From positions 160,001 to 224,000 of the forward strand of contig CAWFCQ010000005.1 in NCBI GenBank assembly GCA_963814375.1: a DNA stretch of 64,000 bases. The letters are read 5' to 3'. Below the pieces are notes generated by a model. The model worked only from the letters and a program-made list of their open reading frames with translations. It was not told where the DNA came from and did no database searches. How positions within the stretch are numbered: position 1 is the stretch's first letter; each line of letters starts with the position of its first letter. The position numbers and the translations under genes were made by a program. This DNA is from an uncultured Chloroflexia bacterium. GTDB lineage: Bacteria > Chloroflexota > Limnocylindria > QHBO01. Below, piece by piece: positions 4,279-34,176 of the stretch.

Positions 4279-4295
4279 CCGCCCTCTCGTCACCC

Positions 4296-4322
4296 GGGCC
4301 GGCAGGACACTCCTGCCGGCCC
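4296..4322. terminator. Hairpin between convergent genes, probable terminator
   Basis: GGGCCGGCAGGA-cac-TCCTGCCGGCCC, perfect 12-bp stem. Confidence 0.65.
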
Positions 4323-4338
4323 TTCGAGTTTCCGCCGG

Positions 4339-7300: not shown

Positions 7301-7730
7301 CCCGAACCGAGGTGCGGGCCGCGCTCAGCTGGTCAGGGCCAAGCGTCCGCTGCGCCCACGCCAGCAGCGAGCCCACGACGACGAGCCCATGTGGCGATGC
7401 ACCCAGCTCGGCCAGGACCGATAGCCGCTCTGCCGACTCGTCATGCTCCGGCAGCGCCCGCTCGAGCGGCAGCGCGGCCCGCTCGGGAAGGATGCGGAGG
7501 TGCGCTCCGCCCGTCCACGCCACGAGGTCGTCCGCCAGGCGATGCGCCTCCTCATCGGTCCGTGCCACAACGACGAACGACCGCGTCCGGGCCACCGACG
7601 CCCGGCGCGACGCGATGTGCGCGGCTCGCGCCGCGGCGGGCACACGAAGGACGCCCGATTCCGGCAGATGGGGCCGAAGGGCGTCGACGAGCGCTGCAAC
7701 ACGGCGATCACCGCCGCGTGAGGAGGGCAT
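4339..7730 (-). CDS. mfd: Transcription-repair coupling factor Mfd (frameshifts near 5672 and 4618)
   Basis: Split over ORFs 4515..7730, 4226..5671 and 4339..4554. Motifs VHVDHGIARY, GDVGYGKTEVA, DEEQRFGV, LYQLRGRVGR, DLEIRGAGNILG. Confidence 0.95.
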
Positions 7731-12332: not shown

Positions 12333-12400
12333 GAGACGCCCATCGTAGTCTCCCGATGCGCGGCGGCTCAAGGTCCAGCCCGATCCGCCATATTGGATCG

Positions 12401-13586
12401 ATGCGACACATCGACGACGCGGAGCGCCGCGCACGCATCGCACAGCGGCACGGCATCGCGCCGGGGCGGCGCCTCCCCGACATCCTGGCCGCGACCGAGG
12501 CGATGACCGTGCTGCACGCGACCGAGCACGCCACGGTGTACCTGTCGCTGGCGGCGCGGGTCGAGGGCTTGCGCGTCACCGATGTCGACGCGGCCCTGTA
12601 CGAGGACCGCAGCCTCGTCAAGCAGCTCGCCATGCGGCGCACGCTGTTCGCGTTCCCACGGGCCCTGCTGGGTGCGGCGCTCGGCAGCGCCTCCGCCCGC
12701 GTGGCCGAGCAGGAGCGCCGGCGGCTCGCCAAGGCCGTGGTCCTCTCCGGGATCTCGGAGGATGGCGAGGCATGGCTGGAAGCGGCCTGCGCGGCCATCC
12801 TCGAGCGGCTCGCATCCGGTGACGCCATCGGCATGCGCGAGCTGCGCGCGTCGGTGCCAATGGTCGCAGGCACCGTGACGTCCTCGCCGGGCAGCCGATG
12901 GGGTGGCGAGGCCCCGATCGCGCCACGGCTCGTCACCTACCTCGGCGCGCTGGGCCTCGTCGCGCGCGGCCGGAATGCCGGGCACTGGAGGATCGCGCGC
13001 CCGACCTGGACGCTCATGTCGCGCTGGCTGGACGAGCCGCCGGCACCAGCATCGGCGGGAGACGGCTATGCCGAGCTCGTGCGCCGATGGCTGCAGGACG
13101 TTCGGGCCGGGGACCGAGGAAGACGTGCGGTGGTGGCTGGGCGGCACGCTCGGTGCCGTGCGGGGTGCCCTCGCGGAGGTTGAGGCCGTGCAGGTCTCGC
13201 TGGACGGCGGCGGAACGGGCTGGGTGCTGCCCGACGATGTCGAGCCCGTCGCCGGCGACGAGCCGTGGGCCGCGCTGCTCCCGGTGCTCGACGCGACGAC
13301 CATGGGATGGAAGGAGCGTGGCTTCTACCTCGGGTCGTACGCGCCGCAGCTGTTCGACAGTGTCGGCAACGGTGGCACGACGGCGTGGTGGAACGGGCGC
13401 ATCGTGGGCTGCTGGATCCAGGATCCCGATGCATCGGTCCGCGTGGTCCTGCTCGAGGATGTCTCCGCCGACGCGAGGCGTGCCCTCCAGGTGGAGGCCG
13501 ATCGGCTGACCGCGTGGCTCGACGGGGTGCAGATCGCGACCGTCTACAGCGCGGCGGCGATGCGGGCGGCGCGCTCGGAGGGCTAG
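12401..13586 (+). CDS. AlkZ-like (HTH_42) DNA glycosylase family protein (frameshift near 13098)
   Basis: ORFs 12356..13183 and 12903..13586. LHATE..TVYLSLAAR, MRRTLF, FGPGT..DVRWW, ALLPVLD..TMGWKER, WWNGRIVGCW. Confidence 0.85.
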
Positions 13587-16575: not shown

Positions 16576-17956
16576 TCAGTCCTCTCCGCAGACCTCGGAG
16601 TCGGAGCAATGGACGACGATGCCATTCACGATCGTGGCGATGACTTCCATCCCCCGGATCTCGTCGGGAGTGGCGTCGAGCACGTCGCCGGAGAGGATGG
16701 TGACGTCGCCGAGCGTGCCTGGGGCCAGGTGGCCGCGTCGCTCTTCGTCGCCGAGGGCGTATGCAGCGTCCACGGTTGCGGCGCGCAGGCCCTCCTCCGC
16801 GGTCAGGAGCTGATCGGTCATCCACTCCGGGGTCTCCGGGAACGCCCGACCACGACCGTCCATGCCGCCCGCGATCTGATCCACGGGCCGGCCGATGTCA
16901 TCGGTCAGGACGAAGTCCGGGAAGAACCATGGCGCGTCGGTTGCCCCGGCGACGTGCAGGCCGGCGTCTACGAAGTCCCTCCAGCGGCCGAGCCAGCCGA
17001 TCTGTCCGGACGGGTAGTCGGCGCCACGGCCCATGTAGTCATTCCACAGGACCCAGTCGACCGTGCCGCCGTCGGGGTGGACGACGGGGACCAGGTCCAT
17101 GGCGACCATGCGATCGAGCTGGGCGTCGGAAACCTCGAGGGCGTGGTCGATCCGGTGGTGGAGCGGGTTCGGGCCCGTGGAGCCGATGGCCGCCTCGAAC
17201 GCGTCGAGGGCCAGATCCTCGGCCTCGGTGCTGACCGTGTGGACCGAGACCTGCCAGCCCGCCTCGTCCGCGCGGCCGATGGTCGACGTCAGGTCGGCGG
17301 GCTCCCAGTTGATGATCTCGCCCGCACCATCGTCGAGATGGATCTTGAGCCCCTGGACGCGCAAGTGGTCGCCCACCGAGCCGCGCTCGTGGTCGGCGTA
17401 CCAGTCGCCGAAGAACTCGTCGCCGAAGTTCAGGGCGAGATAGGCGTCGACATGAATCGGGAGGCCGTCGGCAGCGGCGAGGGCCGTGAGCTCATCGAGG
17501 CGCTCCGGGTTGACCCACTGCTCGGCGATCGAGGTCCAGCCGCGGCTGACGGCCGCCTCCATGGCTTCCTCCGGTGAGTCGAGGCCGTAGTAGTCGCGGT
17601 CCCCGATCCAGTGCGCATGCGCGTCGATGAATCCCGGGTAGGCAACGCCCGAGCCGATGTCGACGACCGGCACCTCGTCGCCGGCCAGCGCCATCACCTC
17701 GTCCCGCGTGCCGATGCAGGTCACGAGGCCCGCTTCGATGAGGAGCGCCTCCGCAACGGCCGGATCGTCCATCGTCACGATCCTGCCCACGAGGACGAGG
17801 CTGCCTCCCTCGGAATCGGTGGCGCTGGCGGCGTCAGTGGGTGCCGGGGAGGCTCGCGCCGGAGCAGGAGGGCGACGCGGCCGTGCCTGGAGCGCAGGCC
17901 GTCGCCACGAGAGCAACGGCCAGGAGCAGGGGCGCGATGACGAACGGCGGGTTCAC
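16576..17956 (-). CDS. Amidohydrolase-3 family lipoprotein (frameshift near 17870)
   Basis: PGFIDAHAH, KIHLDDG, SVHTV, HRIDHA, GATDAP, RGHLAPG. GTG 17956 after AAAGGA encodes MNPPFVIAPLLLAVALVATAC (lipobox) in a different frame from the body. Confidence 0.85.
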
Positions 17957-18049
17957 GCAGACCGATTCCTTTCGAGGTAGTCAACCGTACGGAGCCGGCG
18001 GGTCGGATCCCTCGTCAGGCAGCCCGGGCGGAACCGACCTCGCATCACT

Positions 18050-18082
18050 GAGAGCGTCCGACGGGAGCGGTTTTGTTCAATC
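18050..18082 (-). promoter_or_regulatory. ECF-type promoter upstream of the amidohydrolase
   Basis: GATTGAAC-aaaaccgctcccgtcgga-CGCTCTC, matching the motifs upstream of sigma genes 1 and 3. Confidence 0.65.
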
Positions 18083-18094
18083 CCGGGCGAGAGA

Positions 18095-18128
18095 GCGGGC
18101 GGCCGTCGAGGCCGCCCGCGCATCGGTT
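18095..18128 (-). terminator. Conserved cassette terminator, copy 1
   Basis: Plus strand GCGGGCGGCC-gtcga-GGCCGCCCGC-GCATCGGTT, repeated after each anti-sigma gene. Confidence 0.7.
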
Positions 18129-18134
18129 TGGATC

Positions 18135-18945
18135 GCAGCGGCTCGAGGATGGAGCTCGGGCCTCGACGGCGTCCTCGGGATGCAGTTGCACCGTGGCGAG
18201 GACCTCCTCGAACCATGCCCTGTCGTAGGGAGCGACGGCGAGTGGGTCGTCGCCAGCCGTATAGAGCTGGATCCAGTAGCCGCGGCCAGCGGTTGTGACG
18301 ACCGCCACGTTGCAGTCGTCGGCCGATCAGTCCGGTGCCGCCGTCGACGGTGATCGGCTCGGTCGTCGTGCACCCCTCGTCGCTCGCCATCTGCTCGGGC
18401 GACCCAATCCTCGGGCGTGGAATCGCCGATCGGCTGCGAGGCGATGGCCAGGAACAGGTCGTGCGTCAGGATCGGGTCGTGCGAGCCAGTCGGCATGGGG
18501 CGCCGCAAAGACGAGGGGAAACGTGCTATCCGTCCAGGGCCGGTCGCCGCTTGAGCGGTCCATCCCTCGGGGTACGACAGTGAGATCCCGTGCTGCGTCG
18601 AGGTGAAGCTCTGGGTCAGCGGCGGAGCGGATGCGGGCGGCGACGCGGATGGTTCGGGCGTGGCGGTCGGCTCAGGGCGTCGGCGGTCGGCTGAGAGCCC
18701 ACTCCACCGCTCGGCGAACCGAACAGCTGTGCGCCAACGAAGAGGAGGACGACCACGGCGGCAGCGCCAAGGCCGATGGTGACGATCTTGTTCATCTCGG
18801 GAAGCCTCCACGGGCCGATGACGACCCGTTGTCCTGTCTGTTCAGTGCGATCGCGAACCGCGTCGAACGACTCGTAGGGCAGCTCGTCCGGGCCGTCCCG
18901 AAGGAAGTCGTTGAGCTGTCGATCGAGGTCGTCGTGCGCGGTCAT
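18135..18945 (-). CDS. Putative membrane anti-sigma factor 1 (about 5 frameshifts; 3' end approximate)
   Basis: MTAHDDLDRQLNDFLRDGP...PWRLPEMNKIVTIGLGAAAVVV, Pro-rich linker, then an ectodomain (FTSTQHGISLSYPEGW...GRGYWIQLY...VLATVQLHPEDA) spread over several frames. ATGA overlap with the sigma gene. Confidence 0.7.
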
Positions 18946-19496
18946 GCCATTCGCTCCTGGGATGTCGGGGGCGTCCGAGCCTCGGCATCGAGGCTGGCCC
19001 GGAGCGCCCGCTTGGCGTGGTGCATGCGGGACTTCACGGTCCCGAGGGGGATACCGATGCGAACCGCCACCTCGGGCAGCGGAAGCCCGAGGTAGTGGTG
19101 GAAGACCAGGACGGCGCGCTGCTGGACGGTGAGCCGTCGGAAGGCACGCTCGAGCTGGTCTCGGTTGTCGACGTTCGCGTACTCGTCAGGCCCGTGCACG
19201 GGCTCGACGGAGAGGACTCGGATGCCCTCCGACCACTGCCGGCGACGCTTTGCCTCTGCGTAGCAGGCGTTGGTCAGGATCCGGTGGAGCCATGGCTCGA
19301 AGCGCTGGGGGTCCCGCAGGGTGCGAAGTTCGCGCCAGGCGGTCAGCAGGGCCGATTGGACGGCGTCGTCAGCAAGGGCGAAATCGCGAAGGATCCTGAA
19401 CGCGATCGCCATGCATCGGTCGCCGGTCAGGCGCGCCAAGGAATCGAAGGCCTCTCGATCGCCTCGCTTCGCCTGCTCGACCAGCTCTGCGTGCAC
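18942..19496 (-). CDS. ECF RNA polymerase sigma factor 1
   Basis: LVEQAKRGDREAF, DAVQSALLTAW, FEPWLHRI, region 4 EVA...GIPLGTVKSRMH. GTG start after GGAGG. Confidence 0.93.
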   Translation of the reverse strand: MHAELVEQAKRGDREAFDSLARLTGDRCMAIAFRILRDFALADDAVQSALLTAWRELRTLRDPQRFEPWLHRILTNACYAEAKRRRQWSEGIRVLSVEPVHGPDEYANVDNRDQLERAFRRLTVQQRAVLVFHHYLGLPLPEVAVRIGIPLGTVKSRMHHAKRALRASLDAEARTPPTSQERMA

Positions 19497-19551
19497 CCAC
19501 CCCTCCATCCATGGGGTTGCTGTCGCGCCCGATCTGAGCGTGATCGGACTG

Positions 19552-19582
19552 GAGAGTCCGGGGGCAGCCTATCGGTTCAATC
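19552..19582 (-). promoter_or_regulatory. ECF-type promoter of sigma 1
   Basis: GATTGAAC-cgataggctgcccccgga-CTCTC on the minus strand. Confidence 0.65.
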
Positions 19583-19596
19583 CTGGCAAGAGAAAG

Positions 19597-19630
19597 GCGG
19601 GCGGCCAGCCTGGCCGCCCGCGCATCGGTT
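19597..19630 (-). terminator. Conserved cassette terminator, copy 2
   Basis: Plus strand GCGGGCGGCCA-gcc-TGGCCGCCCGC-GCATCGGTT, followed on the minus strand by CTTTCTCTT. Confidence 0.75.
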
Positions 19631-19644
19631 CCGGGTCGGATCGG

Positions 19645-20612
19645 TCAGGGCGCCTCGAAGGTGGCCGACTCTGCGAGGGTCCGCAGCTCTTCGACGAGGT
19701 CGCCCGGCGTCGCCGGGCCGTACATCGCGTCGAGGATCACGATCGATCCGTCCACGTCGAGGATCCACAGCTCGTCGATCTGGCCCGGTCCTTGGTGGTT
19801 CCGCACCACGGCCTTCGCCTCGGTTCCGTAGCTGACGAACTGGTTCTCATCGCAATCGGCGAACTCTTCCTCCCGCGTCGCGTTTGGCAAATCGAACGTC
19901 ATCGGAACCTGGAGCGTGATCGTCTTGCCGGCGAACCCGCCCACGGTGACGTCTTCGGGCGCGGTCGCGGTCTCGTCGCCCGGCCGGCCAGCCAAGGCCT
20001 CTGCGATCTCGTCGGGCGTGGTGGCGGGCGACTCGGGGATGCCTGTGGTCCACTGGCACGGATCTCCGTACACGTTGAACCCTGTCCCGGCTGGCCATGC
20101 CCACCCGAGCAACGCAGCGCCGACAGTTTCTGGCGGGTCCAGGCCGTCGTCGTCCTTGCTAACGCGCATCGAATTCTGCAATGCGAACCATCCGGACGAC
20201 GCGATGTCGACCGTGATCTCCACGGCGTCAGCGCGTCGCCAGTGACGACGAACGGGCCCTGGGGCAGACCACCCCCGGCCGACGGCGTCGGACTCGGCTC
20301 CTGCGTCGGCTCCGGGGTTGCGCTGGCGGTCGGGTCAGCGCCCACACCGCCAGGGTCACCCGGCGAACTGAGAAGCTGGGCGCCAAGAAGAAGGACCACG
20401 ACCACGGCGGCAGCGCCGAGGCCGATGGTGACGAACTTGTTCATCTCGGGGAACCTCCGCGCCGGCCACCAGGTGGCGCGGCGCTGTGGGGTCGTTTCCG
20501 CCAGGTCCAGCACCGCCCCCGCGATGCGGGAGACGTCCTCGTGCCGATCCTCGTGGAGCCACGACCGGATGGCGCGGTTGACGTCCCGGTCGGAGGTCTT
20601 GAAATCGGTCAT
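19645..20612 (-). CDS. Putative membrane anti-sigma factor 2 (frameshift near 20228)
   Basis: ORFs 19899..20612 and 19645..20223. Cytoplasmic N-domain, MNKFVTIGLGAAAVVVV TM, Pro linker, ectodomain VYGDPCQW...HQGPGQIDELWILDVDG...ESATFEAP. ATGA overlap. Confidence 0.8.
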
Positions 20613-21157
20613 CGAGCCACCTCCCGGGGCGTCGGCTGCGCGTCGGCGATGAGCGTCGAGCGCAGCTGCCGCGTCGCGTAATGCAATCTCGATCCCACCG
20701 TCCCGAGCGGCGCGCCGACGATGTCGGCGACCCGGTCGAGCGGCAGGTCCAGGTAGTGGTGCAGGACCACCACCGTCCGATGGTTCAGGGAAAGACTCCG
20801 AAAGGCACGCTCGAGCTGGTCGCGATCGACGACCGCGCTCGTGCCGTCGACCACCATCGGTTCGTCAACCGACAGCAGCCTCAGGTTCGGCGCCCAACGG
20901 CGGGACTTCCGGCCCTCGGCGTAGCAGGCGCGCACGAGGAGCCGATACGACCAGGCCTCGAAGCGGGCCGGGTCACGAAGCTGGGGAAGGTTCTGCCAGA
21001 CACCCAGCAGCGCCTGCTGCGTGGCGTCCTCGGCCAGGCCGATGTCGCTCAGGATCCGGTGCGACACCGCCAGGAACCGATCCGCGATGGCATAGACCAG
21101 GTCGGCAAATGCCTCCTGGTCGCCGCCCTGTGCACGTGTCACGAGATCGGGGTTCAT
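20609..21157 (-). CDS. ECF RNA polymerase sigma factor 2
   Basis: LVTRAQGGDQEAF, EDATQQALL, FEAWSYRLL, region 4 GAPLGTVGSRLHYA. Confidence 0.93.
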   Translation of the reverse strand: MNPDLVTRAQGGDQEAFADLVYAIADRFLAVSHRILSDIGLAEDATQQALLGVWQNLPQLRDPARFEAWSYRLLVRACYAEGRKSRRWAPNLRLLSVDEPMVVDGTSAVVDRDQLERAFRSLSLNHRTVVVLHHYLDLPLDRVADIVGAPLGTVGSRLHYATRQLRSTLIADAQPTPREVAR

Positions 21158-21206
21158 GTCCCTTCCAACGTTTACGGCGTCGGTTCAGACCGACGCTACA
21201 TCCGGT

Positions 21207-21236
21207 ATGGGCGAGATCCGGCCGGCTTTTTTCAAA
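21207..21236 (-). promoter_or_regulatory. Variant ECF-type promoter of sigma 2
   Basis: TTTGAAA-aaagccggccggatct-CGCCCAT, in the equivalent position to the other promoters. Confidence 0.45.
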
Positions 21237-21352
21237 TGGGTCGCAAGCAGCTCGTCAGCGCGCGGCCTGGCCGCTTGGCGGGCAGGTATTCTGCCGTCCT
21301 ATCCGCGGCGCCGTGGCGCCTGTGTGGCCACCCGAGCACGAGGACACACGCC

Positions 21353-21898
21353 GTGACGTCAGATCGCCGGACCGCGTCCCAAGCCTTCGTCGTGCTACTC
21401 CTCGCGGTGGTCGTCGCGGGTTGCGGGACCACGCTCGAGCCTTCGCCTTCGCTTTCGCCTTCGACGAGAGATGGCATGGCCGTCACGGATCTGTCCGCGA
21501 TTGGATGCGCCGGGAACGATCCCGCAGACGAGGGCGAGCTGACGGGTGCCTGGGCGGGGAATGACACTGGCACGTACTACATCCGCCACGTCGGCGACTG
21601 CGTCTGGTGGTTCGGGACCGAGGTGAGAGATATCGCACCCGGTGCAACCGGCCAGCGAGGATTTGCGAACGTCGCCAGCGGGCGCATCGTTGGCACCCAG
21701 GTCGACCTCGAGTGGGCTGACGTTCCACTTGGGAGCACCGTCAACGGCGGGGGCCTCACGTTCATCTACGACGAAGAGCGCGGCGAGCTGACGCTCGCGG
21801 AGCAACGAGGCGGGATACCGTTCGGTGGCACGGTGCTCACTCGCATCGACCCGTCCGCGAGTCCCGCCGCGAGCCCGAGTCCGTCGGCAAGCCCATAG
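21353..21898 (+). CDS. Lipoprotein of unknown function
   Basis: GAGGA RBS, GTG start, lipobox VVAGC, LTGAWAGNDTGTYYIRHVGDCVWWFG, Ser/Pro-rich ends. Confidence 0.8.
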   Translation: MTSDRRTASQAFVVLLLAVVVAGCGTTLEPSPSLSPSTRDGMAVTDLSAIGCAGNDPADEGELTGAWAGNDTGTYYIRHVGDCVWWFGTEVRDIAPGATGQRGFANVASGRIVGTQVDLEWADVPLGSTVNGGGLTFIYDEERGELTLAEQRGGIPFGGTVLTRIDPSASPAASPSPSASP

Positions 21899-21911
21899 GC
21901 GGTCAAACGAC

Positions 21912-21944
21912 GCGGGCGGCTGGCGGGCCGCCCGCGCATCGGTT
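21912..21944. terminator. Conserved cassette terminator, copy 3 (between convergent genes)
   Basis: GCGGGCGGC-tggcgg-GCCGCCCGC-GCATCGGTT. Confidence 0.7.
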
Positions 21945-21959
21945 CCGGGTCGCGATCGG

Positions 21960-22872
21960 TCAGGGCGTCTCGAATGTGGCCGACTCGACCATGGCCCGCA
22001 TCTCCTCCACGTCCTCGGCCGGCGTGTCCGGGAAGTAGCCGGCGTCGAAGAAGACGAGCGTGCCGTCGACGTCGACGACCCACACCTCGTCGATCTGGCC
22101 CGGTCCCTGGTGGAAGCGGGGAGCTTCGTCGCCCGAGCTCGACACCTCGAGCAGGGTGCGGAACTCGCCACCGTCGCAGTCGGTGAAGACCGCGTCCTCC
22201 GGGACGTGAAGGGTGAGCATCTTCCCGGGATGCCCGCCCACGGTCACGTCGACCGGCTCGGTGGCGTCCCGCGAGGCCTGGGCCGACAGGGCAGCGACCA
22301 ACTCATCCAGCGAGGCGGCCGGCTCGGCCGGCCGGGTCGACTCCCACGCGCACGGGTCCCCATAGACCAGCATGTCCCCGCCATAGACGATGAGCCCGGC
22401 ACCCTCCGGCGGGCCCTCAACTCCGTGCTTCACGACGTTCGTGTTGTAGTCAAGCCCGTGCCAATCGGGCGCCGAGATGGTAACGGTCGTTCGCACTCCG
22501 AAGAGCATTTCGTTGACGAGGACGAACGGCCCTTCGGGTAGGGGGCCAGCCGTCGGCTCCGCAGACTCCGGAGGGGTCGGCGTCGGATTGGGCGTGGCGG
22601 TGGCGGTTGGCTGGCCGCCCACTCCGCTCGGGTCCCCGGGCGAATTGAGAAGCTGAGCGCCGACGATCAGGACCACGACCACGGCAGCAGCGCCGAGGCC
22701 GATGGTCACGAACTTGTTCATGATGGGCGTCCTCCACGGGCCGATGAAGACCCGCTGTTTCTTGTGCTTCAATCTCGGCACGAACCGCGTCGTAGACCTG
22801 GTCATGCAGCTGCTCCTCGCCCTCGTTGAGGAAGGCGCTGATCAGGCGGTCGGGATCTCGTGAGGCGGTCAT
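21960..22872 (-). CDS. Putative membrane anti-sigma factor 3 (frameshift near 22768)
   Basis: ORFs 22450..22872 and 21960..22805. MTASRDPDRLISAFL...PWRTPIMNKFVTIGLGAAAVVVV, ectodomain VYGDPCAW...HQGPGQIDEVWVVDVDG...ESATFETP. ATGA overlap. Confidence 0.8.
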
Positions 22873-23423
22873 GCCAATCGCTCCTGGGAAGGCGGGGTGC
22901 CCCGGGAGTCAGCGTCGATGCTGGCCCGGAGCGCCCGCGTTGCGTGGTGCAAGCGGGACTTCGCAGTCCCGACGGGAATTCCGATTCGTGCCGCCACCTC
23001 GGACGTCGAGAGCCCGAGGTAGTGGTGGAACACCAGGACGGCGCGCTGCTGGATGGTGAGCCTCCTGAAGGCCCGCTCGAGCAGGTCGCGGTCGTCCACG
23101 GTCAGGTAGTCGTCGGAGCCGTACGCGCCCTCGACGGGGAGGATCCTCGGGCCCTCGTACCACCGCTTGCGACGCCTGGCCTCGGCATAGCACGCGTTGG
23201 TGAGGATGCGGTGGAGCCACGGTTCGAAGCGGGACGGGTCGCGCAGGGCTCGGAGCTCGGTCCAGGCCGTGATCAGGGCGGACTGGACGGCGTCCTCGGC
23301 CAGGTCGATGTCGCGGAGGATCCGCACCGCGATCGCCAGGCATCGGTCGCCCACCATCCGCGCCAGGGAGTCGAACGCTTCCGCGTCGCCCTGCCGCGCC
23401 TGGCGGACCAGCTCTTCCTGCAC
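22869..23423 (-). CDS. ECF RNA polymerase sigma factor 3
   Basis: LVRQARQGDAEAF, EDAVQSALITAW, FEPWLHRI, GIPVGTAKSRLH. GGAGG RBS. Confidence 0.93.
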   Translation of the reverse strand: MQEELVRQARQGDAEAFDSLARMVGDRCLAIAVRILRDIDLAEDAVQSALITAWTELRALRDPSRFEPWLHRILTNACYAEARRRKRWYEGPRILPVEGAYGSDDYLTVDDRDLLERAFRRLTIQQRAVLVFHHYLGLSTSEVAARIGIPVGTAKSRLHHATRALRASIDADSRGTPPSQERLA

Positions 23424-23474
23424 TCATCCCTCCACACCCGTGGCTGTCGGCCCATTGGTGGACCGATCACCATT

Positions 23475-23506
23475 GAGAGCGTTCGAGGGAGCCTAACTGT
23501 TCAATC
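23475..23506 (-). promoter_or_regulatory. ECF-type promoter of sigma 3
   Basis: GATTGAAC-agttaggctccctcgaa-CGCTCTC on the minus strand. Confidence 0.65.
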
Positions 23507-25132: not shown

Positions 25133-25823
25133 CTAGGCGAAGTCGCCGGTCCGCGACAGGATCACGGCCGCGGCCGCCACCGCCACCGTCTCCGATCGCA
25201 GGATCCGCGGGCCCAGGCCGGCGAGGGTGGCCCCGGAGCTCGTGGCGAGGTCGATCTCGGAGGGTGAGAAGCCGCCCTCCGGGCCGATGATCAGCGTCGA
25301 GGGCGGCGGCAGCGACCCGAGCCGCGCGCCACGGTGGCGCTCGAAGAGGACGACCGCCGCCGGACCGAGGAGGGCCGTCAGCGGCACCGGCGCCTCGACG
25401 TCCGGGACGACCCCGCGCTCCGACTGCTCCGCCGCCTCGCGCGCGATCGCGCCGAGCCGGTCCAGGCGGCGCTGCGAGACGTCGCGCGCCACCGCCCGCT
25501 CGGTGGCGACCAGCTGGAAGCGGGCGACTCCCATCTCGGTCCCGTGCCTGACCACCCACTCGAGCGCCTCGCCCTTGAGCAGCGCCTGCGCCACGGTGAG
25601 CCGATGCGACGGCTCGCTCGGCGCGACGCCGCGCTCCTCGACGACACAGTCGCCACCATCGAGCCGGCAAGTCGCCTGCGAGCCGTCGTTCGGCAGGAGG
25701 ACGATCCGATCTCCGTCGCCGAGCCGAAGCACGGTGCGCACCTGGCGCGCGATCCGCTCGGGAAGCGGAAAGCGGTCCCGACTCCATCTCGTTCGGCGAT
25801 ACGAAGAACCGATGCACGGTCAT
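25133..25823 (-). CDS. rsmE: 16S rRNA m3U1498 methyltransferase RsmE (frameshifted near 25770)
   Basis: MTVHRFFV...VLRL...TEMGV...EAAEQSER...IGPEGGFS...LGPRILRSET. Confidence 0.92.
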
Positions 25824-26728
25824 AGGGCGTGCTCCAGCGCGAGCGCGACCCACTCGCCGTCGTCGCGTCGGTTCGCGACGTCCAGGCCGGCGTCGCGCAT
25901 CGCTGCGATGACCTCGCTCGCGCGGCTCTCGATGATCCCGCCCGCCAGCAGCGTTCCGCCGGGCGCGAGCCGAGCGGCCAGGTCTGGGGCCGCCGCGATG
26001 AGCACCGCCGCGACGAGGTTCGCGACGATGAGCGGGTGGCGATCGCGGCCCGCCGCCTCGATCGGTGCCGTGCTGGACGGTGAATCTGGGCCGCGAGCCC
26101 GTTCAGCTCGGCGTTTGCCCTCGAGGCCTCGACGGCGAGCGGATCGGTATCCACGCCGACCGCCCGGCCGGCGCCGAGCCGCAGGGCCGCCAGGGCGAGG
26201 ATCCCCGAGCCACAGCCGACGTCGAGAAGCCGCTCGGGCGGAGCGACCTCCTGGAGCATCTCGAGGCATGCGCGGGTCGTCGGGTGCAGGCCGGTGCCGA
26301 ACGCCATTCCCGGATCGAGCGTGACGGCCACCTCGTCCGGCGCGAGCGGCTCGTCGACCCATGACGGCACGATCACGACGCGGCCGATGCGCTGGGCGAC
26401 GTAGTGGTCCTTCCAGGCATCGGTCCAGTCGGCGTCGTCCACCGGCCGGACCCGCAGCTCGCCGACCGGGCGCAGGCCGAAGGCCTGGAGGTGCCACAGC
26501 GCCCGCTCGGTGGAGTCGACCGCGCCGGTGGCGGCCGCGTCGTCGTTGATGTGGGCGGTGACAACGAACGGCGCGGTCGGATCCTGCCGCGCGACGAGCT
26601 CGTCGTCCTCGTCGCGAATCAACCGCGTCGGCTGGACGGCGGTACCTGCCGGCGACGCGGCCGAGGATCTCGGATACGGCCTCGACGGCCTCGACATCGG
26701 CCTCGACACTGAGCTCGAGCCAGCGCAT
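25820..26728 (-). CDS. prmA: Ribosomal protein L11 methyltransferase (compensating frameshifts near 26650 and 26085)
   Basis: MRWLELSVEAD; DWTDAWKDHY; LDPGMAFGTGLHPTT; LDVGCGSGILA; IVANL; GGII. Confidence 0.93.
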   Translation of the reverse strand: MRWLELSVEADVEAVEAVSEILGRVAGRYRRPADAVDSRRGRRARRAAGSDRAVRCHRPHQRRRGRHRRGRLHRAGAVAPPGLRPAPGRRAAGPAGGRRRLDRCLEGPLRRPAHRPRRDRAVMGRRAARAGRGGRHARSGNGVRHRPAPDDPRMPRDAPGGRSARAASRRRLWLGDPRPGGPAARRRPGGRRGYRSARRRGLEGKRRAERARGPDSPSSTAPIEAAGRDRHPLIVANLVAAVLIAAAPDLAARLAPGGTLLAGGIIESRASEVIAAMRDAGLDVANRRDDGEWVALALEHAL

Positions 26729-26739
26729 CGGCTCTGTGA

Positions 26740-27867
26740 TCAGCCGAACAGGTCGCGCAGCCGGTCGAAGACCGAGGGCCCGCCCTTCGGCAGCACCGCC
26801 GGCTCGCTCACCTCGCCGAGCTCGCGCAACAGCTCGCGCTCGCGCCGGCTCAGCTTCGAGGGCACGACGACGTTGACGACCACGTGGAGGTCGCCGCGAC
26901 CCGCGCCGCGCAGCCGTGGGACGCCCTTGCCCTTGACGCGGATCTCGTGGCCCGACTGGGCGCCGGCGGGGACCTCGACCTCCTCGCTGCCCTCGACCGT
27001 CGGAACGGTCAGGGTCGCTCCCAGCGCGGCCTGTGGGAAGGTGATCGGCAGCTCGTGGTAGAGCTCGGTGCCGCGCCGGGCGAGCTCCGGATGGTCGCGG
27101 ACGGAGACCGCGACATAGAGGTCCCCGTTCGGGCCACCCCGCGGCCCTGCCTCGCCCATTGCCTCGATAGCGATGCGCTGGCCGTCGTCGATCCCGGCCG
27201 GGATGGTGACCTGGAGCGTCCGCTCGTCGTTCACCCGGCCATCGCCACTGCAGCGCGTGCAGGGGGTCGCGATGATGCGGCCCTCGCCGCGGCACCGCGA
27301 GCACGCGACGATGTTCACCATCTGGCCCAGGATCGTCTGCGCCACTCGCCGCTGCTCTCCGCTGCCGTTGCACTCGGGACAGGTCTCCGGCTCCGTCCCG
27401 GGCTCGCCGCCCGCTCCGTCGCATCGGTCACACGTCACCAGCGTCGGGAAGCTGATCTCGCGCGTGATTCCGAAGACCGCCTCGGCGAACTCGATGGTCA
27501 GGTCGTAGCGCAGGTCGGCGCCGGGAACGACCCGCTGGCGACGGCGCGCTCCCGCCGGCGATCCCCCGAAGAAGGCGTCGAAGATGTCGCCGAACGGGCC
27601 GAAGCCACCGCCGAAGCCCTCGAACCCGCCGGCCGCCGAGCCCTCGACGCCCGCGTGCCCGAACATGTCGTATGCGCTGCGGCGCTGCCGATCCGAGAGG
27701 ACGCGGTACGCCTCGTTGAGCTCCTTGAAGCGCTGCTCGGCGCCGTCGCCGGCGTCGACATCGGGGTGGTGCTGCTGCGCGAGCTTGCGGAAGGCGCGCT
27801 TGATCTCAGCCTCGTCGGCGTCGCGAGGCACCCCGAGCACATCGTAGTAGTCGCGCTTCACGGCCAT
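26740..27867 (-). CDS. dnaJ: Chaperone DnaJ
   Basis: KRDYYDVLGV, HPD motif, G/F region, four CxxCxGxG repeats. Confidence 0.97.
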   Translation of the reverse strand: MAVKRDYYDVLGVPRDADEAEIKRAFRKLAQQHHPDVDAGDGAEQRFKELNEAYRVLSDRQRRSAYDMFGHAGVEGSAAGGFEGFGGGFGPFGDIFDAFFGGSPAGARRRQRVVPGADLRYDLTIEFAEAVFGITREISFPTLVTCDRCDGAGGEPGTEPETCPECNGSGEQRRVAQTILGQMVNIVACSRCRGEGRIIATPCTRCSGDGRVNDERTLQVTIPAGIDDGQRIAIEAMGEAGPRGGPNGDLYVAVSVRDHPELARRGTELYHELPITFPQAALGATLTVPTVEGSEEVEVPAGAQSGHEIRVKGKGVPRLRGAGRGDLHVVVNVVVPSKLSRRERELLRELGEVSEPAVLPKGGPSVFDRLRDLFG

Positions 27868-28185: not shown

Positions 28186-29437
28186 ATGCCAGATCTTCAG
28201 ATCAGTCGCGACCACGCACGCCGGTTCCTGGTCACGCGCCACCTTCTCGCGCCCCCGCGCGCACTGCCGGCGAAGCCGGAGTCGGTGCTGACTGCCGTCG
28301 AGCGGCTCGGCCTCCTCCAGTTCGATCCCCTCGAAGTGCCCGGTGCCCGTAACCACGACCTCGTCCTCCACGCACGGATCGCTGGCTACCGGCGCGATTG
28401 GTGCGAGCAATGGCTGTACGGCCCGGATCGGCGGCTGATCGAGCTCTACAACAAGAGCCTCAACCTGCTCCCGATGCACGAGCTGCCCCATTACCGGATC
28501 GCCTGGCAGCGCAGCGCCGCCTACTACGACGACGACATCCTGACCAAGCAGGCCGACGTCGCCCAGGCCATCCTTCGTCGGCTCAAGACCGATGCTCCAC
28601 TCTCGACCGCGGCCTTCAGCGAGCACGGTCATGCCGTCGATTGGTGGTGGGCGCCGACACGGGCCAGCCGCGCGGTGATGGAGGCGCTGTTCGTCACCGG
28701 GCGCATCGGCATCAGCCGTCGAGACGGCAACCGCCGCTACTACGACCTCATCGAGCGCCTCGTGCCGGCGAAGCTCCTGAAGCTGAAGGAGCCCGAGGAG
28801 GCGGCCATGACGCATCGGCTCCTGAGTCGCTTCCGCGCGACTGGCATGACGATGCCGGCGGGCGGCACGCAGACCGGAGGTGATGTACAGCGCCGGGCCT
28901 ACTGCCGACCGGGTGCGCCGAACGGCCGAGCTCGTCGACGATGGCACTCTGCTTCCGGTCGACGTGGACGGCCTGAAGGCGACGCGATACATCCTCGCCA
29001 CCGAGGAGCCGATCCTCGACGAGACCGCGGATCCCGCCACGTTCACGCCGGGCGTCAGCTTCCTCGGCCCGCTCGATCCGCTCATCTGGGACAGGAAGGG
29101 GATCCTCCGCGGCCTCTTCGAGTTCGACTACCTGTGGGAGGTCTACGTCCCCGAGGCGAAGCGCCGTTGGGGCTACTACGTGCTCCCGATCCTCTATGGG
29201 GACCGGTTCGTGGGACGGATCGAGCCGCGGCTCGACCGCAAGGCGAAGGCGCTGGCCATCCTCGGCATCTGGTTCGAGCCGTCGTTCGAGCCGACCGAGT
29301 CACCGGGCTTTCTCGCCGCGTTCGGCGAGGCCATCGAAGCGTATCGGGTCTTCGTCGGCGCCGATCGGATCACCTGGCCGCGAACCCGCGCCGGACGCGC
29401 GATCGCGGCTGCGATGCGGACCGAGTCAGTCGCGTGA
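28186..29437 (+). CDS. YcaQ-like (HTH_42) crosslink-repair DNA glycosylase (frameshift near 28878)
   Basis: GLLQFDPLEVPGARNHDLVL, RRYYDL, FLGPLDPLIWDR, LFEFDYLWEVYVP..KRRWGYYVLPIL.GDRFVGR. Confidence 0.88.
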
Positions 29438-30606: not shown

Positions 30607-30747
30607 CGGCCTGAGCATAGTCAAATCGGGGTCAACCGGATGGTTTGTTGAGGGGCGGCCGGAAGACCGGGTTAGTATGCCGGCATACGGTGGCACCGAA
30701 CCGGTGCGTCGGCGGAAGCCGCCAAAGAGATCGAGGGCGCCGCGCAG

Positions 30748-31749
30748 ATGGGCTACAACCTCAGGGATCGCAGCTTCGTCAAGCTGTTGGACTTCACCCC
30801 ACGGGACATCCGGTTCCTGCTGGATCTCTCGCGGGACCTGAAGCGTGCGAAGTACGGCGGGTATGAGCAGCAGCACATGCGCGGCAAGAACATCGCCGTC
30901 ATCTTCGAGAAGACGTCGACGCGGACTCGCGTCGCCTTCGAGGTCGCTGCCTACGATCAGGGCGCCCACGTGACCTACCTGGGGCCGAGCGGCACCCAGA
31001 TCGGCCACAAGGAGTCGATGAAGGACACCGCACGCGTGCTCGGCCGGATCTACGACGGGATCGAGTACCGCGGGTTCGGGCAGGAGATCGTGGAGGAGCT
31101 GGCCCAGTTCGCCGGCGTCCCGGTCTGGAACGGTCTGACCGACGAGTTCCATCCGACCCAGATCCTGGCCGACTTCCTGACCATGACCGAGTTCAGCGAC
31201 AAGCCGCTGCACGACATCAGCTACTGCTACCTCGGCGACGCCCGCAACAACATGGGCGACTCGCTTCTCGTCGGCGGGGCCAAGATGGGCATGGATGTCC
31301 GGCTCTGCGGCCCGAAGAACCTGTGGCCGGCCAAGGAGCTCGTCGCCGAGTGCAAGGCTGTCGCCAAGGAAACCGGGGCCAAGGTCACCCTGACCGACGA
31401 CCCCGCCGTGGGCGTCAAGGGCGTCGACTTCCTGTATACCGACGTGTGGGTCTCGATGGGCGAGGACACATCGGTCTGGGACGATCGCGTGAAGCTGCTC
31501 AAGCCGTACCAGGTGAACGCCGCCCTCGTGAAGAAGACCGGTAATCCGAAGGTGAAGTTCATGCACTGCCTCCCGGCCTTCCACGATCGGCACACGAAGG
31601 TCGGCGAGGAGATGTTCGAGCGCTTCGGCCTCGATGGCATGGAGGTCACGAACGACGTGTTCGAGTCCGAGCGGGCCATCGTCTGGGACCAGGCCGAGAA
31701 CCGCATGCACACGATCAAGGCCGTCATGGTCGCCACCGTCGGCGACTGA
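30748..31749 (+). CDS. arcB: Ornithine carbamoyltransferase (catabolic by context)
   Basis: [41 protein letters not shown]. Confidence 0.93.
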
Positions 31750-31771
31750 CGAGCGCGAGCGGAGGAGCATC

Positions 31772-32689
31772 GTGAAGGTCGTGGTGGCCCTCGGGGGCAA
31801 CGCGCTGCTGAAACGCGGCGAGCCGATGACGGCGGACGCCCAGCGGGCCAACGTCCGCGTCGCGGCTGAGAGCCTCGCCCGCATCGCCGGCGATCACCAG
31901 CTCGTCATCTCGCACGGCAACGGCCCCCAGGTCGGGCTCCTGGCGCTCGAGGCTGCTGCCTACACCGAGGTCGAGGCGTACCCGTTCGACATCCTCGGCG
32001 CCGAGACGCAGGGGATGATCGGCTACCTCGTCGAGCAGGAGCTCGGCAACTTCCTGCCCGCTGAGGTTCCGCTTGCGACGATCCTGACGATGGTCGAAGT
32101 CGATCCCGACGATCCGGCCTTCGGCAACCCAACGAAATTCGTCGGCCCGATCTACGAGAAGGCGGAGGCCGATGCTCTCGCCGCCGACAAGGGTTGGACC
32201 GTCAAGGCTGATGGCGACCACTGGCGACGCGTCGTTCCCTCGCCGAAGCCGAAGCGGATCTTCGAGATCCGGCCGATGCGATGGCTCATCGAGCGTGGCG
32301 TGGTCGTCATCTGCGCCGGCGGCGGCGGCATCCCCACGATGTACGCGCCGGGCGAGGAGCGGCGGCTGATCGGCGTGGAGGCCGTGATCGACAAGGATTT
32401 CGCGACGAGCTTCCTGTCGCGCGAGCTGGACGCCGACCTGTTCATCATGGCGACCGACGTCGACGGCGTGTACGTCGACTGGGGCACGCCCGGCCAGCGG
32501 CGCCTCGATCGCGTCACCTCCGAGGAGCTGCGAGCGATCTCGTTCCCCGCCGGCTCGATGGGGCCGAAGGTCGACGCCGCCACGGAGTTCGTGGATGCCA
32601 CCGGGAAGCGCGCCGTGATCGGGTCGCTCGAGCAGCTCGACGCGATGGTGGAAGGAACCGCCGGCACGAACGTCGTGTCGGGCAAGTGA
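31772..32689 (+). CDS. arcC: Carbamate kinase
   Basis: [50 protein letters not shown]. Confidence 0.96.
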
Positions 32690-32705
32690 AGGAGTTGATG
32701 GAACG

Positions 32706-33968: not shown

Positions 33969-33977
33969 GGTCCAGCC

Positions 33978-34166
33978 ATGAACGATGACGTTTCCGTGAC
34001 GGACGGCGACGCTTCGATGGGGCGGGTGATCGGGCTTCTCCAGGTGATCACCGGGCTGCTCATGGTGATTGCCATCGTGCTCCTCGTCATCCTGGCCCGC
34101 GGGCTGGAGGACCAGGAGCGGTCAGGGGCAACGCTCACGGTCGCTGCCTCCCAGGTCACCGCATGA
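33978..34166 (+). CDS. Small single-TM protein (62 aa)
   Basis: GAGG RBS, one hydrophobic helix (VIGLLQVITGLLMVIAIVLLVIL). Fills the gap between arcA and the NhaC gene. Confidence 0.6.
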   Translation: MNDDVSVTDGDASMGRVIGLLQVITGLLMVIAIVLLVILARGLEDQERSGATLTVAASQVTA

Positions 34167-34176
34167 CCGTCCGCCC

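Follow-up and report, generated by a model that had tools for sequence, protein, structure and literature searches.

Discordant histories of sigma-linked heads and ectodomain tails in a family of ECF sigma/membrane-protein cassettes from Limnocylindria

Introduction

How does a bacterium come to couple closely related sigma factors to quite different extracytoplasmic domains? [quoted passage not shown] In each cassette the sigma gene is followed by a second gene whose ATG overlaps the sigma stop codon (ATGA). The product of the second gene runs from an N-domain of 48-58 amino acids (aa) through a hydrophobic transmembrane (TM) helix, which starts MNK(F/I)VTIGLGAAAVVV, and a Pro/Thr-rich linker to an ectodomain. 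The C2 and C3 ectodomains form one family, named B, and the C1 ectodomain belongs to another, A. Judged by their trees, the heads of such cassettes (promoter, sigma gene and N-domain codons) and their tails (TM helix onward) have different histories in Limnocylindria, and we consider it probable that tails have been exchanged between heads at a conserved junction.

ECF sigma/anti-sigma pairs are a major bacterial signalling route and serve as orthogonal switches in synthetic biology; membrane-anchored examples include RpoE-RseA and SigW-RsiW. To our knowledge, accounts of how new input-output pairings originate mostly go no further than a general mention of domain shuffling. The present family offers a concrete, datable case with a defined junction, in which orthologous heads of ~90-97% nt identity bear unrelated sensors. 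If exchange is the right explanation, the family would supply a natural design rule for swapping the sensor domains of anti-sigma factors, a signalling protein in which an in-frame internal start can be tested, and a handle on a large uncharacterised family of Limnocylindria, a group known here only from metagenome-assembled genomes.

The three cassettes of the window

An initial annotation of the window had proposed that the cassettes are mosaics recombined at the TM-coding block, with C3 resembling C1 upstream of that block and C2 downstream of it. The resemblances themselves are all present. On the upstream side, sigma1 and sigma3 are 73% identical over 188 aa (tblastn), the N-domains of C1 and C3 both finish QRV.IGPWR, and their promoters are alike; C2 differs in every one of these features, sigma2 being 49.7% identical to sigma1 or sigma3 over 177 aa and its N-domain being of another type. 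On the downstream side, ectodomains 2 and 3 are 42% identical over 196 aa, and pieces of the C1 ectodomain find no other match within the window (tblastn), in keeping with the view that it is unrelated. A three-way DNA alignment traces the change along the cassette. In the order C3-C1/C3-C2/C1-C2, percent nt identity is 41/33/23 in the promoter, 77/58/57 in the sigma gene, 65/44/45 in the N-domain, 80/84/85 at the junction, 52/65/56 in the linker, 29/48/29 in the ectodomain core, 40/78/34 in the final 150 nt of the gene and 64/83/64 in the 3' flank. In this flank C2 and C3 are the closest pair, alike at 27/27 nt around the 3' word CCGATGCGCGGGCGGCC. That word occurs three times, once 3' of each cassette, and a GC-rich hairpin that the annotation did not list stands 3' of C1, C2 and C3 alike.

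The near-identity of some 47 nt in all three cassettes, also pointed out in the annotation, is borne out. The block that starts with ATGAACAAG differs at no more than four positions between any two of its copies. With up to two mismatches to the C2 copy it is found three times and nowhere else in the 64 kb (0 expected from 100 shuffles), and GGAGG-N9-ATGAACAAG occurs exactly three times against 0 expected. Where block residues are identical, the best window pair has identical codons in 14/16 cases (9.3 expected, P 0.006); the other pairs have 13/15 (P 0.007) and, for C3-C1, 11/15 (P 0.1).

A recombination-breakpoint test had been suggested for these cassettes, and was limited to the part in which all three are homologous, from the sigma start to +125 nt past the TM ATG. 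By maximum chi-square, the affinity of C3 switches between -15 and +9 of the TM ATG (permutation p = 0.0065); upstream, 190 sites support C3=C1 and 58 support C3=C2, and downstream the counts are 5 and 10.

Is C3, then, a hybrid of C1's head and C2's tail? This part of the mosaic proposal is not supported. The C2 and C3 ectodomains, at 42% aa identity, are no closer to each other than are the sigmas (50%). B is the commonest tail in the sigma3 clade (11/16), and the C3 tail has much closer relatives elsewhere (79%), including some behind C2-type heads (P0008, 77%; P0013, 74%; database proteins carry P numbers here, and surveyed loci L numbers). The idea of a recent C1 x C2 recombinant was considered and rejected. 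By sequence, C3 is an ordinary member of the system, with a type-I head and a B tail that is not derived from C2's. Taken alone, the pattern in the three cassettes would need only one ectodomain replacement, in the C1 lineage. It is one cross-section of a family-wide pattern.

Heads and tails in the wider family

A scan of species-representative genomes with a sigma alignment yielded 79 loci with 113 sigma genes of this kind. Downstream genes were classed by tblastn against N-domain and ectodomain panels that we assembled, and on which the tail-family counts depend. With the window included, the 116 cassettes carry tails of families B (63), A (9), D' (6), I (5), D (4), H (2) and E, F, G and J (1 each), with 14 unclassified and 9 too short. 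No mutual similarity among ectodomain families A, B, D and D' was detectable in the searches run. Tail E (L022) is an AMIN-like domain and tail F (L020) consists of PD40 repeats (Pfam); beyond these two, Pfam and NCBIfam found nothing in 30 head-matching representatives and further tails. A sequence-profile search of solved structures with the A and B profiles gave nothing below E = 0.06. In the ESM Atlas, the homologues P0006 (B) and P0157 (A) lead only to unnamed Chloroflexota clusters, and one structural neighbour of B with a guanylate-cyclase family (TM-score 0.49) is a lead only.

If the two parts of a cassette had been inherited together, families of tails should follow the sigma tree. 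This tree has 112 rows, four having been dropped for length or a stop codon, and the sigma1, sigma3 and sigma2 clades have SH-aLRT (approximate likelihood-ratio) support of 99, 97 and 99. Tails in the sigma3 clade (16) are B 11, D 3, D' 1 and A 1; in the sigma2 clade (6), B 5 and A 1; in the sigma1 clade (8), A 6 and two too short to classify. The label of one tail, L017, is uncertain, being B in one classification and D in another. Sigma orthologues at 80-96% aa identity thus carry ectodomains of four mutually dissimilar groups. Ectodomain A lies inside three separately supported sigma clades, with at least five changes across the starred branches of the tree, and forcing the nine A-bearing sigmas into one clade is rejected by the approximately unbiased (AU) test (log-likelihood difference 414, p-AU 2.4e-6; the group was named after the tree had been seen). 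On 87 rows of the same tree, N-domain type changes 9 times against a shuffled mean of 36.9, and ectodomain family 19 times against 26.5, so the N-domain travels with the sigma factor and the ectodomain largely does not.

The tail side gives the reciprocal result. A tree of B ectodomains was built from 123 rows: 52 from the loci and window, and 71 database proteins that comprise all those with heads other than I and I' plus the first 25 each of I and I'. Head labels change 40 times on it, where 7 changes would be the minimum and shuffled labels average 70. One clade of C3-like tails (28 rows, support 100) bears heads I (11), II/III (7), IV (4), V (2), I' (2), VI (1) and x (1), and the C2 tail falls, with support of 99, into one clade with tails whose heads are S3 (L002), S2 (L042), Sx (L078) and I' (P0181). 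Separate phylogenies of the two halves, which the annotation had called for, therefore disagree: a single A clade is rejected, and seven head types share one tail clade. These trees and the pairwise comparisons given below share sequences.

Database searches from either end of the protein agree with the trees. A query of the C3 TM helix plus ectodomain matched 874 proteins at E <= 1e-3 among 8000 candidates scored. Among the 120 matches listed, most are ~300 aa long, which is the expected length of N-domain plus tail, so intact anti-sigma genes are single open frames; the N-termini are of at least six types. The nearest relatives of the C3 ectodomain (66-79% identity, among the matches listed) carry several kinds of head: type I, which P0002-P0006 combine with a B tail just as the window's C3 does; I' (P0007, P0012); II (P0008, P0010, P0013, P0018, P0029); IV (P0023, P0030, P0031, P0033); V (P0021, P0026); and VI (P0035). 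Three among the 120 (P0027, P0028, P0034) are lipoproteins that carry B without a head. From the other end, the C1 N-domain plus TM helix matched 393 longer proteins at E <= 1e-3. Behind C1-type N-domains and TM helices (72-95% identity), the tails among the 120 matches listed are A (77), B (42) and C (1). When N-domains and ectodomains were clustered after removal of the low-complexity linker, N-domains 96% identical to that of C1 were found with A tails and also with B tails, and the similarity of proteins with C1-type heads stops in the linker, past GSPSGG.G. At E <= 1e-3 a profile of N-domain plus TM helix (79 positions) finds 4207 cluster representatives (clusters at 50% identity); a threshold of E <= 1e-10 leaves 1972. 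A count of 24 tail groups among 112 representatives is unreliable because families A, D and D' are joined in one linked component, and its 21 singletons may include frame-broken open reading frames (ORFs).

Some proteins string ectodomains together. Behind its type-II head P0390 carries A and then B, P0388 bears two B domains on an I' head, P0036 likewise contains two B domains, and P0389 is a lipoprotein with two of them.

Where the histories part

The window cassettes are 85-100% identical to their orthologues at the nt level through promoter, sigma gene and N-domain. For C3 and C2, identity is down to ~50% within 30-90 nt past the TM ATG; for C1, ~80% identity is kept through ectodomain A. 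We fitted a two-state change-point of nt identity to 107 orthologue pairs, which come from only 23 cassettes (14 + 4 + 5) and are not independent. The median change-point is +47 nt past the TM ATG, with quartiles at +10 and +64, and 87 of the 102 pairs in which identity drops by at least 0.2 have it between -15 and +89.

The 3' side can be traced in some cases. Between the window's C3 and L003, nt identity is 90-98% in the head, 55-63% in the ectodomain and 85-90% in the 3' flank, and the pair therefore has a diverged tail between a conserved head and a conserved 3' flank. In B-type genes the final ~50 nt, together with CCGATC..GACCCGGAACCGATGCGCGGGCGGCC-loop-GGCCGCCCGC, are kept in C3, L003, L005 and C2; past the hairpin only C3 and L003 are still alike.

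Tails appear older than the heads that carry them, to judge from synonymous divergence (dS, by the NG86 method). In 15 pairs, A-A pairs included, sigma dS lies in the range 0.13-0.43 and tail dS in the range 0.59-1.42, the tail value being the larger in 15/15 (ratio 1.8 to 9), though such estimates are rough where third-position G+C (GC3) is near 0.9 and tails align poorly. Even tails of one family behave in this way: L044_555 and L014_7835 have a sigma dS of 0.195 and a tail dS of 0.71.

A different kind of evidence comes from cassettes that share a genome. Non-orthologous pairs with sigma identity of 0.4-0.8 were compared by matched resampling. For the 47-nt block, the 16 pairs that share a genome have an identity of 0.815 and the 1012 other pairs one of 0.667 (p < 1e-4), whereas the control, 60 nt upstream of the block, gives 0.462 and 0.460. 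In the window, C1-C2 and C2-C3 block identity (0.96) exceeds the 99th percentile of other-genome pairs (0.89). Individual variants tell the same story: both L016 cassettes share MSKLLP and two L053 cassettes share GSMGVP.MNKFLAVGLGVAAVVLAGYIGVQLLGGP, and in each case the orthologues lack the variant. Around the junction, L053_7001 and L053_11540 are 96, 98, 89 and 84% identical in successive segments from -29 to +150, between flanks of 42-71% and ~50%; the L016 pair has a junction tract of 91 and 89%. Paralogous cassettes in one genome are thus seen, from their sequences, to homogenise a tract of ~100-200 nt centred on the junction, and recombination at or beside the junction block is well supported.

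Tail exchange as the probable explanation

What process would leave such a pattern? We read the cassette as two modules. The head is a slow-evolving unit of promoter, sigma gene and the initial ~50-58 codons of the anti-sigma gene, which code for the short cytoplasmic N-domain. The tail comprises the Shine-Dalgarno (SD)-like word (GGAGG, 9 nt, ATG AAC AAG ... TM helix), the linker, the variable ectodomain and the GC hairpin. By comparison with relatives, tails have been replaced many times; the 5' boundary falls within the junction or right next to it, and the 3' boundary, where visible, at the gene end plus hairpin. Homologous recombination or gene conversion could achieve this within genomes, between strains, or both, the homology arms being supplied by the junction and the 3' end. 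By analogy with known anti-sigma factors, and in view of gene order, topology and the co-variation of N-domain with sigma, the N-domain would keep the sigma factor at the membrane for as long as the ectodomain has not sensed its signal, and each exchange would thereby join a sigma output to another input. With its in-frame SD-like word and start codon, the tail may in addition be translated alone. As said above, we regard exchange of tails between heads at the conserved junction as probable.

A bolder version makes the tails self-contained sensor cassettes, each equipped with a ribosome-binding word, start codon, membrane anchor, ectodomain and hairpin of its own, that move between heads by homologous recombination at two conserved ends, with an old and diverse pool of tails, young and uniform heads, and a head-less sensor from the internal start that could tune or compete with the complete anti-sigma protein. 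If true, it would be a natural plug-and-play rewiring of signal input to transcriptional output in an essentially unstudied family; we hold it tentatively, judging the odds to be somewhat against it.

Several points weigh against exchange at the junction or against its precise placement. Because the block is conserved in every cassette, a change-point near +47 is partly forced, and the pairs that give it are non-independent, as noted. The block being universally conserved, a crossover anywhere from just before the ATG to the block end gives the same picture. Some exchanges must lie elsewhere: L005-type pairs change at -96 to -145, in the N-domain, and type-IV heads such as that of P0033 have a different TM helix before a C3-like ectodomain, which puts their junction in the linker. 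The annotation's idea that the TM block is a crossover point that shuffles sensors among outputs thus stands for the shuffling and for a 5' boundary at or next to the block; crossovers are not placeable inside it, and some fall in the N-domain or linker. Identical codons in the block exceed expectation only modestly. The C2 and C3 ectodomains (42% aa identity, core 48% nt) are as far apart as vertical descent from the time of the sigma2/sigma3 split (50% aa) would make them. The dS values are rough, and the AU test was set up post hoc. No clean tail-only gene was found in the 79 loci, although stand-alone tail cassettes were looked for; of nine ectodomain hits there that lack a sigma hit upstream, three directly follow an N-domain, their sigma having simply escaped detection, and the others match only weakly or over a short stretch. 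Integrase, recombinase and transposase families are absent from the 37 other window ORFs (>=90 aa) and from the cassette ORFs. Finally, the window is error-prone, with frame breaks in three anti-sigma genes and in prmA, and several related loci are equally so.

Internal start or recombination at the junction?

Perhaps nucleotide conservation at the junction is kept by selection for an internal start that makes a head-less TM-ectodomain protein, and recombination is a by-product. Several observations speak for this. Counted with no start codon presupposed, GGAG[GA] stands near the N-domain end in 95/104 cassettes, and the codon 9 nt past it is ATG in 80, GTG in 4 and TTG in 1 of those 95 (85 start-capable). 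The word is formed by codons for [W/R]-R, in which Arg is AGG or AGA in 48/51 cassettes, though these two make up 10.4% of Arg codons in window genes. GGAG[GA]-N9-[AGT]TG has 0 occurrences in 46.6 kb of the window's other coding sequence. Across 213 database proteins the residue aligned with the TM start is mostly M (196), the rest having V (10), L (2), I with M next to it (3, the M following), R (1) or T (1), and 7 of the 120 listed database proteins are called exactly from the TM methionine. The sigma genes themselves use ribosome-binding sites of the GGAGG type. No conserved RNA structure competes as a reason for the conservation: RNAalifold on 25 junctions gives 0 pairs, single junction folds have z of -0.6, -3.4 and -1.1, and Rfam has 0 matches in the whole window.

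Conservation of the word, its rare Arg codons and the start-capable residue together mark the feature as real and as under nucleotide-level selection, so far as sequence comparison can tell; the annotation, which had noted an internal ribosome-binding site, was right that such a feature is there. That the start is used to translate the tail alone, we infer. Against conservation for the start as the whole answer, the frame of intact relatives runs on from the N-domain, so a full-length protein is expected, and SD-like words inside genes may also be translational pause sites. It would leave the same-genome identity excess and the replacement of tails unexplained, so the internal start complements tail exchange rather than replacing it; as a sole explanation we find it doubtful.

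Ordinary paralogy, rapid divergence and misassembly

Could ordinary duplication of paralogues suffice, the C1 lineage having once acquired another ectodomain and the TM block being alike through protein constraint (membrane insertion, intramembrane proteolysis) and codon bias, with no special part for the block in recombination? Several points favour this view: the C2-C3 ectodomain identity matches the sigma divergence, TM residues are conserved across the family, the codon excess is modest and for C3-C1 non-significant, and a block conserved in every cassette would in any case give change-points where it ends. The family argues otherwise. A tail family spread over three sigma clades, with a single clade rejected, seven head types on one tight tail clade, and tail dS several times sigma dS even between tails of one family are difficult to reconcile with it, as are same-genome junction variants (MSKLLP, GSMGVP) absent from orthologues at a place whose upstream control has no excess. 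Repeated head/tail discordance with junction-centred tracts is what the data already indicate, and we judge simple paralogy improbable.

It might instead be supposed that no exchange took place and that ectodomains simply diverge fast under diversifying selection behind heads held constant, as the A tails of sigma1 orthologues (72-75% nt identity against 87-93% for their heads) might suggest. A, B, D and D', however, have no detectable mutual similarity, tails E and F bring unrelated Pfam domains (AMIN-like and PD40), orthologous heads have folds behind them that bear no relation to each other, head types are intermingled on the tail tree, and tails are raised in synonymous as well as non-synonymous divergence; this view is very improbable. 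Least credible of all is that paralogous cassettes were mis-joined at the shared block during assembly, a classic place for such errors between tandem paralogues and one found here in error-prone records: the block (47-90 nt) is shorter than the k = 127-141 of the short-read assemblies and far shorter than long reads, discordance is present in loci from two kinds of assembly, the same head/tail joins recur in protein clusters on several contigs (P0033, for instance, has 10 members on 5 contigs), and on either side of the C3 tail the sequence runs collinear with L003.

Relation to known systems

Is the downstream gene the cognate regulator of its sigma factor? Its ATGA overlap with the sigma gene and the way in which N-domain type follows the sigma tree (9 changes against 36.9) suggest so. 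As in RpoE-RseA and SigW-RsiW, an ECF sigma factor with sigma2 and sigma4 domains only is paired with a translationally overlapping, presumably co-transcribed single-pass membrane protein that has a short cytoplasmic N-part and an extracytoplasmic C-terminal domain, and a promoter-like element lies 5' of the operon. Unlike in those pairs, the N-domain matches no anti-sigma model and lacks HxxxCxxC, the junction is conserved at the nt level with an in-frame SD-like word and start, and tails appear to be exchanged. Set against the ~100-aa four-helix domain by which profiles detect anti-sigma factors of class I, with HxxxCxxC in the zinc-binding subgroup, the N-domain has 48-58 aa, no Cys/His motif and no Pfam or NCBIfam match. 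Class II domains (CnrY, NepR) bind the sigma factor as a short clamp of two helices. According to excerpts of two papers, they are shorter than the ~100-aa class I domain (PMC6101532), and domains under 50 aa are treated as possible class II (PMC7406223). The N-domain would fit class II by its short length, a likeness of size without a sequence match.

Closer in overall design are the SigI-RsgI arrays of cellulolytic clostridia, in which, as far as the excerpted account goes, a genome has several paralogous pairs whose anti-sigma factors carry different extracytoplasmic sensing modules (PMC6056542). The shared plan is that of paralogous pairs with an anti-sigma factor made of an intracellular sigma-binding part, one TM helix and a differing sensing module. 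SigI, by the same excerpts, has no sigma4 domain (PMC6056542); the cassette sigmas are of ECF type with an ordinary region 4, and the N-domains and ectodomains have no RsgI-type family match in Pfam or NCBIfam. The passages of that account on these pairs describe no exchange of sensing modules at a conserved junction.

Polymorphic toxins, as excerpts of one study describe them, join a conserved N-part to a highly diverse C-terminal domain through recombination with alternative cassettes (PMC3482391). The resemblance is in mechanism only: two parts with discordant histories meet at a conserved junction. Here, unlike in the toxins, the exchanged part includes a TM anchor and a sensor domain, and no silent stand-alone cassettes were found beside the arrays. 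No tail matches a toxin family in Pfam, and the next gene is the next cassette, the lipoprotein-like gene or the amidohydrolase, with no immunity gene among them. Integrons, shufflons and invertible switches are served by a dedicated, adjacent recombinase gene, and no such gene adjoins the cassettes among ORFs of >=90 aa.

Modular anti-sigma factors and paralogous arrays with different sensors are already known, to judge from excerpts (PMC6056542), as is C-terminal replacement by recombination (PMC3482391). Our searches of one open-access library turned up no account of this family, of anti-sigma genes with an in-frame internal start, or of recombination that exchanges anti-sigma ectodomains where a conserved junction lies; one paper, in the part available, merely counts Limnocylindria sigma factors (PMC13212565).

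Features of the locus

The window has a G+C content of ~70%, and its closest matches are metagenome-assembled genomes labelled Limnocylindria or Chloroflexota. The parts of the three cassettes are given in Table 1. All three sigma factors (182-188 aa) contain only Sigma70_r2 and Sigma70_r4_2/r4 (Pfam), the architecture of ECF (group 4) sigma factors, and score 55.6-68.2 bits with TIGR02937 (sigma70-ECF; cut-off 42.9); none of the narrower NCBIfam sigma models reaches its cut-off. Orthologues of sigma3 are found at 80-92% aa identity in 15 loci, and sigma2 has one at 96% in L001. No part of the second gene matches a Pfam or NCBIfam model, the intact relatives P0002, P0008 and P0121 included. 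In alignment, ectodomain B has a conserved Cys pair and the motifs VYGDPC and HQGPGQIDE.

Table 1. Parts of the three cassettes and adjoining elements (positions in the window)
Feature	Position	Strand	Details
C3 promoter-like element (GATTGAACAGTTAGGCT...CGCTCTC)	23470..23506	-	0-mismatch word at 23490-23506; kept in 14 aligned sigma3-clade upstream regions; putative function
sigma3, ECF sigma factor, 184 aa	22869..23423	-	Pfam Sigma70_r2 + Sigma70_r4_2; TIGR02937 68 bits (cut-off 42.9)
C3 anti-sigma N-domain, type I, ATGA start overlap	22736..22872	-	residues 1-35 in one frame, KQRVFIGPWR onward in the next
C3 junction	22675..22735	-	GGAGG 22731-22735, 9-nt spacer, ATG 22719-22721, then 47-nt TM-coding block
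C3 tail: TM helix, Pro/Thr linker, ectodomain B	21960..22721	-	open frame, 253 aa counted from internal ATG
C3 3' flank, imperfect GC hairpin	21905..21962	-	fold -29.2 kcal/mol, z -1.8
Lipoprotein-like gene between C3 and C2, convergent with C3	21341..21898	+	lipobox-like N-terminus ...LLLAVVVAGCG
sigma2, ECF sigma factor, 182 aa	20609..21157	-	own upstream region TTTGAAAAA..CCCATACCG; 5' hairpin ~21177-21196
C2 anti-sigma N-domain, type II (SDRDVNRAIRSWLHEDRHED...WWPARR)	20459..20612	-	
C2 junction	20398..20458	-	GGAGG 20454-20458, 9-nt spacer, ATG 20442-20444, then 47-nt block
C2 tail: TM helix, linker, ectodomain B	19645..20444	-	frame broken ~20226-20235
C2 3' flank, perfect GC hairpin then T-rich run	19597..19647	-	terminator-like, 11 pairs
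C1 promoter-like element (GATTGAACCGATAGGCT...CTCTC)	19545..19582	-	
sigma1, ECF sigma factor, 188 aa as listed	18942..19508	-	orthologues align from residue 2
C1 anti-sigma N-domain, type I'	18810..18945	-	database N-domains up to 96% identical
C1 junction	18749..18809	-	GGAGG 18805-18809, 9-nt spacer, ATG 18793-18795, then 47-nt block
C1 tail: TM helix, linker, ectodomain A	18140..18795	-	at least 3 frames; tblastn with intact relatives P0121, P0122
C1 3' flank, perfect GC hairpin	18095..18139	-	34 nt, 88% to C2 copy
Degenerate third promoter-like copy, 3' of C1 and 5' of amidohydrolase gene (16576-17916)	18045..18082	-	3 mismatches

Frame breaks and assembly quality

All three anti-sigma genes of the window are broken in frame. 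That of C3 has one extra base at ~22768-22775 relative to all five aligned orthologues, that of C2 has a single break, and that of C1 has several (~18140-18680), its ectodomain being spread over at least three frames by comparison with intact relatives. Elsewhere, prmA (25378-27424) is frame-broken after ...NGLAAQIH, mfd (4229-7400) is present only as a 567-aa C-terminal piece, and two AlkZ-like ORFs (12335-13180 and 28850-29434) cover only profile positions 2-180 and 187-327; these broken genes fit a general indel problem in the assembly. A change of frame between N-domain and ectodomain occurs in 10/40 cassettes of one long-contig record series and in 0/35 others (Fisher p 0.0012). The titles of that series carry one isolate prefix, and a project with this abbreviation is reported to have produced genomes from Nanopore data (PMC12313526), which may be where these records come from. 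Since frame changes concentrate in that series and other window genes are broken too, we treat the breaks as probable assembly indels, which on the sequences at hand is the most likely reading for all three anti-sigma genes; true pseudogenes, above all in the C1 tail, may be the alternative.

Promoter word, hairpin and gene order

The promoter word GATTGAACNNNTAGGCT occurs without mismatch only twice in the window, 5' of C3 and of C1, and a 3-mismatch copy lies at 18066-18082, 3' of C1. In the 79 loci it is found ~80 nt upstream of sigma3- and sigma1-type genes (23 sites in 18/79 loci) and nowhere else. The candidate promoter core is GATTGAAC...TAGGCT; a scan with the sigma-70 consensus gave 0 promoter sites. 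The region-4 helices of sigma1 and sigma3 (73% identical) are very similar and the two genes stand behind the same word, and it may therefore be, speculatively, that sensors A and B feed overlapping outputs. The leader of sigma2-type genes has instead a conserved inverted repeat, GCGTCGG-TCTGAA-CCGACGC (21177-21196, minus strand, and orthologues), which sits between the conserved TTTGAAAAA...CCCATACCG region and the ribosome-binding site and has no Rfam match.

The hairpin GGGCGGCC-N2-9-GGCCGCCC has two matches in the window, only 3' of C1 and C2, and 21 matches in 19/79 loci; those placed against sigma coordinates fall 1.4-1.6 kb downstream of the sigma start, behind A, B and D tails.

Gene order differs between the window and its relative L001. 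In the window the order is sigma3, the lipoprotein gene on the opposite strand, sigma2, sigma1 and amidohydrolase, and in L001 it is sigma3, an extra cassette, a co-directional lipoprotein gene, sigma2, amidohydrolase and sigma1. Whole cassettes, on this comparison of sequences, change place between close relatives. The extra cassette (L001 8643-10235), between the sigma3 cassette and the lipoprotein gene, has a frame-broken sigma gene, a type-V N-domain and a B tail, with no counterpart in the window. The order of C1 and amidohydrolase is swapped (window 16576-19600, L001 12680-14551). C1 in the window is bracketed by two copies of a hairpin plus GGATTGAAC (19566-19630 and 18066-18128), the promoter-like part of the second being degenerate; they could be the scar of cassette movement, or the second could be a sigma-dependent promoter of the amidohydrolase gene. 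The lipoprotein-like gene, which has no Pfam or NCBIfam match, is kept in relatives, and its homologue in L001 (10334-10933) has the opposite relative orientation, which implies an inversion between close relatives, possibly between the palindromic hairpins of the cassettes.

The cassettes are flanked on one side by yqeY, a 7TM-HD protein gene and the amidohydrolase gene, and on the other by genes for a HIT protein and a GSDH-type dehydrogenase, rsmE, prmA and dnaJ. Further along the window, at 30676-37236 on the plus strand, lies an arginine deiminase cluster with genes for ornithine carbamoyltransferase, an amino-acid (carbamate) kinase, arginine deiminase and two transporters of the Na_H_antiporter and DcuC families.

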